From: Eledone cirrhosa
Taxonomy: Eukaryota
Assembly (NCBI GenBank): GCA_964016885.1
Contig: OZ024741.1
Coordinates: 186,434,001 to 186,498,000 of the forward strand
Direction of reading: 5' to 3'
DNA length: 64,000 nt
The position numbers and the translations under genes are program-made. This document shows positions 4,143 to 61,947 of the stretch, one piece after another (positions within the stretch are counted from its first letter, which is position 1; each line of letters starts with the position of its first letter). Below the pieces are notes generated by a model. The model did no database searches. It had not been told where the DNA came from and worked only from the letters and a program-made list of their open reading frames with translations.

Positions 4143-4447
4143 ATAACGAAGGAAATGTGGTAAGGAACCAGGTGGACCATAACGCACCAAAGTACTCAAT
4201 ACTTGAGGTAGTAGAGTATGTAATACTCCTATTATATATATATATATATATATATATATATATATATATATATATATATATATATATATATATAGGAACG
4301 AGTAGGACCCCGACGGCTGAGCTCAAGCTCGGCTTGATCTCAGCCGTCGGGGTCCTACTCGTTCCTATTACCCACTCTACTACCCTAAGTATTGAGTACT
4401 TTGGTGCGTTATGGTCCATCTGGTTCCTTACCACATTTCCTTCGTTA
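4143..4447. mobile_element. Fold-back family A: two opposed PLE-derived stubs in one (TA)n tract
   Basis: 4143-4225 is the reverse complement of the tail at 4366-4447. 4293-4367 is a hairpin (taggaacgagtaggaccccgacggctgag / ctcagccgtcggggtcctactcgttccta). Confidence 0.8.
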
Positions 4448-5306
4448 TATATATATATATATATATTTATTAAAATGCTAATTTAAAACAATATGTTTTT
4501 AATTAGTATTTTTTCAACCTAGCTAACTTTGCCATTTGCAATTGGAACACATGAATACTTATATCGGTGTTCATCCCTCTCATATATTCAATTATATACA
4601 TATATATATATATATATATGTGTGTGTGTGTGTGTGTGTATATTATATATATTTATATATATGTATGTAAAAGGTAAACAGAAATAACAACACAATCGGT
4701 ACAGTATATGGAAGGTATATATTAGGTTAACGCTTGATATAGTAGGAAGAATATATATACATCTTTATTTATATATATATCTGTATATGTATGTACATAT
4801 ATATGTGTCTATGCATATGTATATATATTTATATGTTATATATATATATATATATATATATATATATATATATATATATATATATATATATATATATATA
4901 TATATATATATATATATATGCATATAAATGGAAAAAATGAAATTTCATTTCTCACTCTTAGTACGGCTGATATTTATATATAAGTATGTATACGTACATA
5001 CATATATGTATACAGACGTACAGTAGTATGTATATACATACATACATGCACACATATGTATATGTACGTATGGGTTTACCGAAAATGTATTATAATGCTC
5101 GGTGTGTTTGTAAACAAACAGCCCGAATTATTAGCCGTACGGTGTTCGGCAACCTTGTTACCCTTTTGTTCAACACTAACAAAGGAACGATGAAATAGTT
5201 TCTAGCTTATTAGCTGTCATCAGCACCGTGTACTTTCCTGTCAGTCGGTTGAACGTTTGGGAAGTATATACTTTCCTTATGCATATATATATAATATGTA
5301 TGTATA

Positions 5307-6146
5307 TACGAGGTTGGGCTGAAAGATTTATACGCTATGAAGTTGTGAGAATAAAACCATGAAATTTGGAAGGATGTTGCTATCAAATAGCTGCATGAGT
5401 TTAGCCACTTGGACAATCATGCTGAGATGGTTGCTATTTTACAGGATGAGCAACCAGCGTTTTAGCCCGAAAAATTGTGAAGCTGAATTTAAGAGGGCAG
5501 GGAAGAGTCATGAAAATAACTCATGGTCTGGATGTCCTGCATTTTCTGCCTCTGTGGAAATCATTCATCGACTTCACCACATGGTGATGTATGACAGACT
5601 ATGAATCAAATAGCCAATGCATATCCCGTATGAGAGGTAAGAATATTCTGCACTATGAATTGGCATGTCAGTGGTTTCTGCTCGGTGTCTTTCACGTCTT
5701 CTCACACCCGATCAAAAGCGAACTAGGCTGGTCAAATCACGGACAAATCTGACATTTGGTGGATTGGCAGTATCAGTAGAGGGTGGGACGCCATGCTTTG
5801 ACGCATAAAGTTACGGCCCTTGTCATTCTGTGTTCAAATCCCGTCGAGCTTAACATTGCCTTTCATCCTTACGGGGTCGATAAAATAAGGTACCAGTAAT
5901 GCACTGATAATTACCGGCCTTGTGCCAAAAGTAGAAACATTTAATTCATGCAGATCGAACTGATTTCCTTAACCGTTTCCTAACCCAATATGAGTGTTAA
6001 GTATATCTTTTTGAAATGTAGTAAGAGTAATCTTGAAACTGGTGGCACTTGCTTTAAAGAACTTTGAGTTTGTAGCACTAAACAGAAGGAAATAGAGCGC
6101 AAGTAGTTATAGAGGCCTTAAAACTTTCGAATTGAGCTACCTCCTA
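5307..6146 (+). mobile_element. Degenerate, internally deleted mariner-type DNA transposon, interrupted by a SINE
   Basis: TACGAGG.. start; AEFKRAGKS.EN..WSGCP (mariner AEFKRGR...RSGRP); VSARCLSRLLTPDQKRTR (cf. SARWVPRLLT.EQK..R); weak inverted end near 6120-6146. Confidence 0.72.
5757..5943 (+). mobile_element. SINE inserted into the mariner remnant
   Basis: Head, core and tail match the 2521 copy. Confidence 0.88.
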
Positions 6147-58931: not shown

Positions 58932-60816
58932 TCCCTCGTCCACACCGCCCTCACTCGCGCCCGTGCTGTCCACCGCTCCACCACCCTCACGCCACGCCAC
59001 CATACACCAACCCACTGTCTCCTCTTCCCCATCACCTACCACCCCTCCACCCTACTCTTCAACCGCACCATCCTCCGCCTCTTCCGACGCCTACAGTCCG
59101 ACCCCACCACCTCCCACATATTCCCATCCCCATCCCTCCCCTCCTTCAAACGCGCACGCAATCTCCGCACCCTCCTCGTCCGCAGCTCGCTACCCCCCAA
59201 CCCACGTTCTTCTCCCCCCCGGTTCCCTTCCCTGTTCCAGGCCTCGTTGCAACCCTTGCCCCCACATCACCAACACCACCACCTTCCAGAGTCCCAACGG
59301 CCACTCTCTCTCTCTGTCCGGCACGCCTTCCGCTGCCCTCCTCCAAGCTAGTCTATGGACTTCGTTGTACGGAGTGCAGCGCAACCTACGTCGGACAGAC
59401 TGGACGTCGCCTGGCGGACCGTTTCACCGAACACCTCTGGGATATTCGTCTCGGCGGGAGTTGCCCTATCGCCCGCCACTTTGGCTCCCCTGGACATTCC
59501 GCGCACCGCCTCACAGTCTGTGACCTACTCCAATGCCACGGAACACCCGCCACCCGCCTCACGGTCGAACAACGCACCATCTTCACCCTACAGACCCACA
59601 CTCCCGCCGGCCTGAACTACCCACCCCTATTCCTCTAGCCTTCGACCCCCCCCACACACACACATATCCCCCACTAACACCACTAACACACCCGCATTCA
59701 ACCCTTTCCCCACCACCAGTAAACTAACACCCAGTAACACCCACTTCACTACACACACACTCATCCAAACACGCACAGACACACCATACACTACACTCCC
59801 TTCACCGACCATCACACCTTTTCTCTCGCTCTCCCCGCTCCACACACACCCCTTCACACACACACACACATCCCACTAACACCTCTACTAATACACACCC
59901 CATCCCCCGCACACGACCCCCTCCCCACTCCACCTTTCACACCTATCCATCACCTCCCTTGTTCACCGCATCTCCTCACACACAGACGCACTGACTTTCT
60001 CCACCTGCCAATCTCCTCTACTGCTGCTATGCCTTCTCCTGCCTTGACCCTCTGACCATTTCCTGTTGCACGCCCCCCACATATCCCCTCTTGCGACCAC
60101 CACCAGCCATCGTTTCAACTATCCACTCCATAACAAGGAAAATATCCGACAATCTTCACACCCTCTACGGAACTACCTTAGGAACTTACCCACAGACATA
60201 CACTCACAATTTTTTTTCGAATCACGCCACCGACATGCACAAAACGTATAAACACCAACGCACACGTGCGTACCCCCATATATATACACACTCAGCCACC
60301 GGTATCCCCCTCCCCCACCCCTCTGACCCCTCCCCATCCACACGCGCACACACCGACATACACCCCACCCCCACACACACCTTTTCCTGAACCTGGAACC
60401 TCGTTGTTCCCCCAACTCTCACATTCACATACACACACACACACGCGCACACACGTACACCTACACACATACACAAACACCACCTTCAGCCCTCCCCGCT
60501 CGGACATCCCGCCTCTCTCTCCCCACTCCACCCGCCACCACCCCAACACGCCCCACATCCTTGCACCACTTGTTTATCTTCGTGTTTATTTTTATTTTTA
60601 TTTCTACTCCTTCCACCGGTTTTTCTCCCCCCTCTTTTTTCTAAATGTCTCTCCACCACTCACCCACATACCCTCGGAACTCTCTTCCCACCCACTTTTC
60701 TCCTGAAGAAGGGCGTATGTCCGAAACGTCATTCCCCACCCCCACCCTCAAGAGCGTGAAACTAATAAACCTTTGTTTGTACTGCCTCTGTGTTTTGTTC
60801 CCGTTCCATTTTTCAC
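58932..60816 (+). mobile_element. Neptune-like Penelope element 3' part (frameshifted GIY-YIG) with a long C-rich 3' UTR
   Basis: FPITYHP...SFKRARNLRTLLVRS, PCSRPRCNPCPH, LVYGLRCTECSATYVGQTGRRLADRFTEH...IARHF...PAGLN; aataaa at 60764; (TA)n flanks. Confidence 0.9.
60696..60737 (+). ncRNA. Minimal Penelope-type hammerhead core
   Basis: CTGAAGA-agggcgtatgtcc-GAAACGTC; stem I pairing not evident. Confidence 0.65.
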
Positions 60817-60860
60817 TATATATATATATATATATATATATATATATATATATATATATA

Positions 60861-61947
60861 TAATCAAAGTTCTGTTCAAATCATATATATGCTTACAATT
60901 GTTTCCTCCAAACCGAGGTTTGGATTCTTCGGAGCAATTTATTAATGAATGATCACATATATGACCTCCTTTTCAACCCAAGAGACATACAGATACATAT
61001 GCATATATTGTTGCTTGGTGGGTCGACATCCATTATAACATTTAGCGTGGCAGTATACATTTAAAGATTACATTCATATCAAAAGAGGGTAAAATTAAAA
61101 TTAATGTTAAAATACAACATGAAATTAATGCGATAGGATAGTCAGAAGCAGTAAGTGTGTGCAATAGTTATACGTGTGGCAAGCACGTGTGTCCTATTTA
61201 TAAATATTATAGTGCGGCAGGGTGCTACAAGTAAAACAAGCACTATAAGCGGGTAAACAAGATTATTAAGGGGGTTGTACTGGTAACGTATCTTTTATAT
61301 TATCTACACACAAGCTTATATAACATTCATATAAAAGATACGTTACCAGTACAACCCCCTTAATAATCTTGTTTACCCGCTTATAGTGCTTGTTTTACTT
61401 GTAGCACCCTGCCGCACTATAATATTTATAAATAGGACACACGTGCTTGCCACACGTATAACTATTGCACACACTTACTGCTTCTGACTATCCTATCGCA
61501 TTAATTTCATGTTGTATTTTAACATTAATTTTAATTTTATCCTCTTTTGATATGAATGTAATCGTTAAATGTATACTGCCACGCTAAATGTTATAATGGA
61601 TGTCGACCCACCAAGCAACAATATATGCATATGTATCTGTATGACTCTTGGGTTGAAAAGGAGGTCATATATGTGATCATTCATTAATAAATTGCTCCGA
61701 AGAATCCAAACCTCGGTTTGGAGGAAACAATTGTAAGCATATAAATGATTTGAACAGAACTTTGATTATTATAACTTATATATAACTGCTCTGTAAAACA
61801 ACTGATGTTATTACATTGAGCTATTTATCTTACTGGTAATAAGGTAGTAATATATTACTGCCTATCACTATTTAGGATTTGTAAAAATATATATAACTAC
61901 AAAAGGTTTTTGTATATGCATATCCATAAATAGTATCCTTAATACTA
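60861..61947 (+). mobile_element. Large fold-back element: 440-bp arms, 28-nt spacer, ~180-bp tail, in (TA)n
   Basis: 60861-61300 vs 61329-61768 are inverted, with about 4 mismatches by eye. Confidence 0.9.
61693..61739 (+). ncRNA. Hammerhead-like ribozyme with a CCGAAGA core (mirrored at ~60890-60936, minus)
   Basis: tgct-CCGAAGA-a tccaaac ctcg gtttgga g-GAAACAATTGTA-agca; all three stems form. Confidence 0.7.

Follow-up and report, generated by a model that had tools for sequence, protein, structure and literature searches.

One-of-each pairing of two fixed start sites in tailed fold-back insertions at (TA)n arrays of Eledone cirrhosa

The window analysed here, a stretch of 64,000 nucleotides from the 3.0-Gb genome of Eledone cirrhosa (contig OZ024741.1), carries insertions in (TA)n arrays that consist of an inverted arm, a direct arm and a unique tail at one end (Table 1). 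An initial annotation, based on the letters of the window, had listed ten such fold-back loci, and all ten were found again, each within a few bases of its listed coordinates. Nine have overlapping fold-back arms, and the tenth (13826-13941) is a partial case with an inverted and a direct arm that have no common sequence. The insertions were assigned to families A to G, which are unrelated, as had been annotated, in DNA sequence only. Hydra-type protein motifs link A, B and C, the hammerhead is of one type in C and D, and E and G have the same architecture. Families A, B, C and F map to the 3' ends of Penelope-like elements (PLEs), and E and G are retrozyme-like. Nearly all two-armed insertions that could be classified, in the window and beyond it, combine one arm from each of two fixed start sites.

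Table 1. Fold-back insertions and related fragments in the window
Feature	Coordinates	Strand	Inverted-arm span	Details
Family A tail-only arm, inverted stub ~6 nt	4146..4232	-		separate insertion, same TA array as the 4295 element
Family A fold-back	4295..4445	+	4295-4365 (93%)	b-arm 4295-~4330, c-arm to 4445; site b 4365/4366; bulged hairpin 4374-4397
Family A, arms without overlap	13826..13941	+		b-arm 13826-13883; c-arm 13885-13941, starts within tail
Family C, Hydra-type PLE 3' end	18690..18974	+	18690-18720/18845-18876	long b-arm 18690-18844, short c-arm 18845-18974; hammerhead minus strand 18782-18728 (in b-arm); site b 18876/18877; hairpin 18891-18915
Family D fold-back	21396..21852	-	21484-21851 (97%, element minus strand)	184-bp arms, 88-bp tail (21396-21483), type I hammerhead in each arm
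Family A fold-back	30270..30463	+	30270-30385	b-arm and c-arm, 80-bp tail
Family E fold-back	30975..31258	+	30975-31142	538-bp tandem hammerhead unit (retrozyme-like); hairpin 31151-31174
Family F fold-back	31413..31624	-	31458-31624 (minus)	PLE 3' end
Family A subfamily, lone b-arm	32034..32100	-
Family A fold-back	53956..54159	+	53957-54079	served as genome-wide search query
Family A tail fragment	54804..54839	-		ends at site c
Family G, ~540-bp tandem hammerhead unit	58172..58875		58172-58875 (nested)	c-arm minus from 58172; b-arm plus, ends 58875; hammerhead core from 58626; both hairpins seen: minus 58257-58225, plus 58439-58455
Family B, Hydra-type PLE 3' end, fold-back	60863..61945	+	60863-61766 (96%)	arms ~450 bp, tail 161-169 bp, hairpin 61788-61821

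Two fixed start sites recur in every family: the tail-less arm begins at a TA motif called site b, and its partner begins at another such position, site c. The annotated fixation of the outer end of the inverted arm at a TA or TATA motif is borne out in A (-80), B (-161 to -169), C, D, E and F. Site c of family A is itself a TA motif, and the family A tail passes it into the open reading frame (ORF) in L076, L045 and the duplicated pair L038 and L039; E and G read through site c into the next repeat unit. Because the tail continues in these ways, site c, like site b, is evidently internal to the RNA, as judged from the genomic copies, and the annotated reading of the tail end as the RNA's 3' end has to be replaced by a second internal start site. 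No copy reading through c was seen among 25 family B loci. Genome-wide, the exact end patterns of site b (one subfamily) and site c occur 463 and 1498 times, respectively, with 0 control matches.

One b arm is paired with one c arm in 94 of the 96 classifiable two-armed insertions among 140 loci (60 of family A, 25 of B, 20 of E, 15 of F and 20 of D). Three of these loci lie in the window and two form a duplicated pair, and family C does not enter the count because its query dictated the outcome. The pairing was found in 52 of 53 classifiable insertions among the 60 pattern-selected family A loci, which were read by eye. Thirty of these had been picked by their b end and comprise 27 with a tail-bearing partner (23 complete, 4 with the outer end lost), 3 without a partner and no b-b pair, and the 30 picked by their c end have a b partner in 25 cases and a c partner in one, with 4 unclassifiable. 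Family B has b partners in 15/15 and no c partners among its 25 loci, family E 14/14 mixed and no matched pairs among 20, family F 7/7 among 15 and family D 6/7 among 20. Four of the mixed E pairs have a focal arm that had passed c, with its end at the following b; here it was the partner that started at c. The best-hit sets contain three more c-c pairs and no b-b pair. Loss of unstable palindromes presumably cannot explain the missing b-b pairs, since b-b arms would be no longer than b-c arms.

The two arms of an insertion appear to have been made separately. Of the 60 family A loci, 57 could be parsed, and 45 have two arms with a simple joint; in these, the b-arm reaches further 5' in 21 cases, the c-arm in 9, and both are level in 15, with 7 pairs of arms that do not overlap. 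The pattern of arm reach in families B (L199, L200) and C is like that in A. This supports two independently primed cDNAs that stop independently and are joined head to head, as in the annotated two-primer model, whose (TA)n targeting and fixed internal TA start are supported as well. A published proposal (PMC3846280) invokes self-priming: a single cDNA, or an antisense template, would snap back on itself, with copying as far as site b. It would suit the joints that lie in palindromes or long overlaps (at least 4 nt in 14/45) and the subfamily markers common to both arms described below. However, it requires an inverted arm nested in the direct one and is therefore contradicted by the non-overlapping arms, unless a separate antisense RNA started at b, as well as by the further reach of the b-arm; the same conflict is seen in B and C, and site b is moreover marked by a hairpin like that at site c. 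We regard self-priming as very improbable.

The 45 joints comprise 20 that are blunt or near-blunt (-1 to 1 nt of overlap), 3 with overlaps of 2-3 nt, 14 with overlaps of at least 4 nt, a class partly inflated by hammerhead stems, and 8 with insertions. Obligate microhomology joining was rejected on account of the 20 blunt or near-blunt joints.

Both arms seem to derive from a common source. A three-base subfamily marker is the same in both arms of 10 of the 11 c-selected family A elements in which both arms are long enough (0.46 expected, permutation p=0.003); the selection pattern itself fixed the marker in the 13 b-selected elements, which therefore carry no information on this point. Between the two arms of a family A element, private mismatches number 5.7 per 45 nt, versus 6.1 between copies. 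Marker agreement and private mismatches together argue that the arms come from one RNA or one source locus. Because the private mismatches are not shared, later homogenisation of the arms and an origin as read chimeras are both contradicted, and gene conversion was rejected on the same ground as a cause of their concordance. A rival explanation invokes two RNAs, one per enzyme subunit, each primed by one nicked strand, with the asymmetry of the protein forcing b versus c. It dispenses with copying one template twice, and it accounts for the rare c-c pairs and for the marker-discordant arms of L148, L135 and L010, which indicate that two RNAs are used at least sometimes. Yet it fits the marker agreement only if a single source locus is active at a time, and it offers no reason for two hairpins on one RNA, so that as a general explanation it strikes us as unlikely. 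The same 12-nt deletion over a small hairpin recurs in the tail-bearing arm only of L002, L003, L009, L010 and the window element 53956-54159, and may reflect either repeated skipping by the polymerase or a second template.

A bulged hairpin lies 6-17 nt after site b in families A, B, C, D, E and G. It has a 4-bp stem (ACUC/GAGU, GCUC/GAGC or GUUC/GAAC), a 2-nt 3' bulge and an upper stem that is unrelated in sequence, and it shows compensatory base pairs. Where read-through makes it visible, the hairpin also follows site c: in strict form in 3/4 copies of A, in one strict and six relaxed of 8 copies of E, and in relaxed form in G. It occurs in 9 of 44 clusters of the defining set versus 2.0 expected. 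When the unchanged motif was applied to 40 new blind stretches (400 kb), it was found in 7 of their 19 tailed fold-backs versus 0.8 expected.

The arms also tend to end at one place. In family A, 65 of 102 arm ends fall between -146 and -127, with a peak near -138 and 3 beyond; the fold point is thus variable, as annotated, but not random, since ends accumulate at one position, here called the wall. The cut predicted for the hammerhead, near -96, coincides with few A ends, and cleavage was rejected as the cause of the fold points. Read against the promoter consensus and the usual TATA-to-start spacing, the A wall has an initiator-like A with a TATA-like motif 31 nt above it, and 11 of 22 arm ends in family F lie at -227 to -240, around a wall at about -237 that is 31-32 nt below TATAAAA. 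PLE promoters sit in the pseudo-long terminal repeat (pseudo-LTR) (PMC2377424), and the wall is likely to be the transcript start; in most insertions, copying would then have run along the transcript's 5' pseudo-LTR as far as the cap. For this termination step alone, a polymerase stall at hammerhead stem II or at a bound protein has been considered. The A wall does lie at the top of stem II in the predicted fold, whereas the C, D and F walls lie upstream of or outside the hammerhead, and TATA-like motifs lie ~31 nt above the A and F walls; we therefore think a stall rather unlikely, and favour the transcript start.

Several families can be traced to their parent elements. The genome-wide search gave, at first look, 2055 candidates for family A. 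L076 is a near full-length family A element with a pseudo-LTR, a tail, a 3' untranslated region (UTR) and, upstream of the repeat, a single ORF encoding a reverse transcriptase (RT), a linker and, as the C-terminal part, a GIY-YIG endonuclease; longer family A copies likewise run on into the endonuclease C-terminus. The nearest ESM Atlas clusters of its RT piece are RT-like (top score 0.96), and a Pfam search with this piece gave no match. In L076, L045, L038 and L039, all of family A, a partial tandem forms the pseudo-LTR, with the tail running into the ORF. Family A has DKT instead of DKG, RWR as its RWK-type N-terminal motif, a CxCX5C linker, no CCHH, and CxxC and CxH around conserved E and N residues, and on this match with the motifs in the available text of PMC8557442 it is provisionally placed in the Hydra clade; a first assignment to Neptune was dropped after the same comparison. 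Families B and C adjoin endonuclease ORF fragments (Pfam E=0.015 for B, below the cut-off); B has CxCX5C, CxxC and CxH, and C is similar with one cysteine substituted. Family F lies downstream of a GIY-YIG ORF (Pfam E=1e-6) of a different PLE type, outside the Hydra pattern, with CX4CxxC and cysteines between GIY and YIG. These sequence features support descent of A, B, C and F from PLEs, and the possibility raised with the annotation, that the families might not map to PLE 3' ends, can be set aside for these four. No parent ORF was found for D in 20 loci up to 760 bp upstream, and D is provisionally assigned to the PLEs by its hammerhead type and anatomy.

Type I hammerhead descriptors match families C, D and E (0-1 matches per shuffled window). 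The descriptor misses family A, whose predicted fold has three stems and a U3-A8 core, a variant that has been reported (PMC4209133); none was found in family B (L079), and the best 150 of 213 Rfam matches in the window were generic microRNA-like hairpins, with no hammerhead family among them. Family E is a 538-bp non-coding tandem unit with a type I hammerhead in each, and the tandem structure of G, with a core read by eye, was seen in the window element; such ~540-bp hammerhead repeats look retrozyme-like. In L228, L238 and L240, both arms of the family E insertion exceed the 538-bp unit, which would fit a multimeric or circular template. An array of ~6 copies of a 469-bp tandem repeat, >99% identical and with a hammerhead-like core (L080:1-2809), represents a young retrozyme-like family that also makes fold-backs.

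The fold-backs themselves are unlikely to be artefacts. The fold-back finder gave 194 matches in 974 TA-bounded segments versus 3 in the same segments shuffled, a comparison of real segments on both strands, from loci partly enriched by targeted searches, with shuffled segments on one strand; the blind 400 kb gave 28 matches in 224 segments. A random position adjoins (TA)4 with a probability of 0.05. A DNA-level origin would make the insertions miniature inverted-repeat transposable elements (MITEs), replication-fork fold-backs or assembly artefacts. Tc1/mariner MITEs have TA flanks and inverted repeats, as do the insertions described here, and three blind-set segments are symmetric. Against this, the arms match 3' UTRs of PLEs, downstream of RT and endonuclease ORFs, the ends are asymmetric, and the 463 and 1498 exact end junctions recur genome-wide. 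Instead of the fixed length and inverted repeats at both termini of a MITE, the insertions have a unique tail at one end and vary in length and fold point. The two arms of an insertion differ from each other (by ~12% in family A, unlike read chimeras), so that the assembly error that the annotation had allowed for does not apply. A DNA-level origin is extremely improbable.

We consider it probable that a dimeric PLE enzyme nicks both strands of a (TA)n array and uses a single RNA to start two cDNAs, one at either of its two fixed UA sites. The elements mobilised into these arrays would be PLEs and their non-coding hammerhead derivatives. The dimer may sit on both hairpins of a single RNA, one subunit per hairpin, with one nicked strand priming at each UA site; both cDNAs would extend toward the 5' end of the RNA, the downstream one displacing or following the upstream one on uncut RNA, and would stop separately, in most cases where transcription probably begins within the pseudo-LTR. 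End joining would then give an inverted arm followed by a direct arm with its tail, the tail being the distance between the two sites, and long arms may stem from tandem read-through or circular templates. Parts of this scheme have biochemical parallels: in vitro, a purified PLE protein for which a dimer is predicted cuts both strands and extends them on an uncleaved RNA template, with two internal start sites that define a tail (PMC11167929). A wider proposition, to which we give about even chances, is that PLE integration is obligatory twin priming, in which the duplicated bulged hairpin positions one dimer subunit at each of two start sites close to the 5' end of a single RNA, the default product is a short palindrome that stops where transcription begins, full-length copies arise only from tandem or circular RNA, and the two hairpins are the cis signal that lets retrozymes use the enzyme.

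A number of observations weigh against this reading. All mechanistic steps are inferred from old genomic copies. The hairpin motif was defined after the same families had been viewed; it is absent from family F, which still obeys the one-of-each rule, and from most short-tail clusters, and, F aside, 3 of 8 other b-sites tested in the window (30384, 54080 and 21483) miss the strict pattern. A second hairpin at c is not visible in B (0 read-through copies in 25), C, D and F. The c-c pairs L157 and L209, with L012, L021 and L045 in the best-hit sets, depart from the pairing rule, and the discordant arms from the use of one RNA; arm concordance could also come from a single active source locus. 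With most joints blunt or near-blunt, no single joining pathway is apparent. In family D, where the wall is at about -278, and in family C, the walls come from query-biased sets and lack a clear TATA box. The symmetric, tail-less, TA-bounded inverted repeats of the blind set (L286:5409-5662, L303:9017-9378 and L310:8926-9276) could be true MITEs, matched pairs or insertions whose tails are separated by a TA run. In the in vitro work, the start site of the Anolis element was the same for both strands, and coupling of two start sites is not reported in the accessible text (PMC11167929).

Further repeats lie in the same arrays, a single one of which can hold several stacked families. A minus-strand Hydra-type GIY-YIG fragment (17998-18647) lies between TA arrays and adjoins the family C element, and a plus-strand fragment of the other PLE type, with cysteines between GIY and YIG (58933-59638), follows the G element. 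TA-bounded pseudo-LTR pieces with hammerhead cores are found at 53614-53919, 57873-58124 and 23739-23880, and a 32-bp inverted repeat with a (TA)19 run in its centre at 53544-53649. Outside the window, the inverted arm of L013 (family A) begins at TATATA inside the ORF. Copies of a repeat like a short interspersed nuclear element (SINE), which presumably resembles octopus SINEs, often adjoin TA arrays (3540-3790, 5770-5930, 13483-13583, 14048-14149 and 51100-51200), and other non-LTR retrotransposon fragments occupy 10508-11575, 24497-27727 (an open endonuclease-RT frame of 1076 aa), 37262-38989 and 43548-44276.

If correct, this reading bears on several questions. Nineteen tailed fold-backs per 400 blind kb extrapolate to ~10^5 genome-wide, a large natural data set and a large, now named, source of short palindromes in a genome. 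In vitro assays would be predicted to show that each strand uses a single start site with a defined hairpin of its own and that copying stops at the 5' end of the RNA. A route of retrozyme mobilisation is also suggested. Because PLE enzymes are the closest relatives of telomerase, wider interest attaches to an RNA element that sets where copying begins.

The anatomy of an inverted copy, a tail and a (TA)n target has been published (PMC8557442, PMC3846280): PLEs generally have an inverted 5'-truncated copy and a tail on one end, Hydra-clade PLEs almost always insert in (TA)n, and how the inverted repeats and tails arise has been called an open question (PMC8557442). The published self-priming proposal (PMC3846280) fits the copies described here poorly. 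In the PLE literature searched, neither the pairing rule nor the repeated hairpin nor the wall was found described, although subscription papers, Repbase notes and the supplements of PMC8557442 may contain some of this and those of PMC11167929 may bear on RNA structure, and 'twin priming' has 0 occurrences in the core PLE papers. Within that literature, the one-of-each pairing, the repeated hairpin and the wall thus appear new, and the proposed mechanism is a variant on a known anatomy.

A comparison can be drawn with L1 twin priming, in which two nicked strands prime on one RNA to give an inverted 5' segment, the first start being the poly(A) end. Priming by two nicked strands on one RNA would be shared, and one family A copy (L077:3028-3917, the same copy as L048) has a non-overlapping, L1-like inversion inside its ORF. 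The first start here is internal instead of the poly(A) end, the second is fixed and structured, and a palindrome results because the two cDNAs usually cover one and the same stretch; in the L1 form, the inversion adjoins the direct segment without duplicating it, whereas 38 of the 45 A junctions overlap and 7 do not. The mode thus works like twin priming and differs from its L1 form. As far as the available text of PMC8557442 describes them, Hydra-clade PLEs share with the elements studied here a C-terminal GIY-YIG without CCHH, DKT, CxCX5C, CxxC and CxH, a hammerhead and (TA)n targets; tails are 80-170 bp here versus 30-40 bp there, and most copies here are tiny palindromes. The Anolis Poseidon element (PMC11167929) likewise has two internal starts that set the tail, cutting and extension of both strands, uncleaved RNA, a predicted dimer and an AT-rich target. 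Its start lies in an AC-rich stem-loop without target homology, whereas both sites here are UA motifs matching (TA)n, and each insertion uses the two sites, one each. Finally, families E and G resemble non-LTR retrozymes (PMC7229834; bioRxiv 10.64898/2026.07.22.740005), as these are described in the accessible text, in their non-coding tandem units with a type I hammerhead and in arms of more than one unit, and differ in units of ~540 bp. Unlike known non-LTR retrozymes, they insert with the b+c fold-back signature and carry two hairpins as in the autonomous element, which points to a cis signal for mobilisation.

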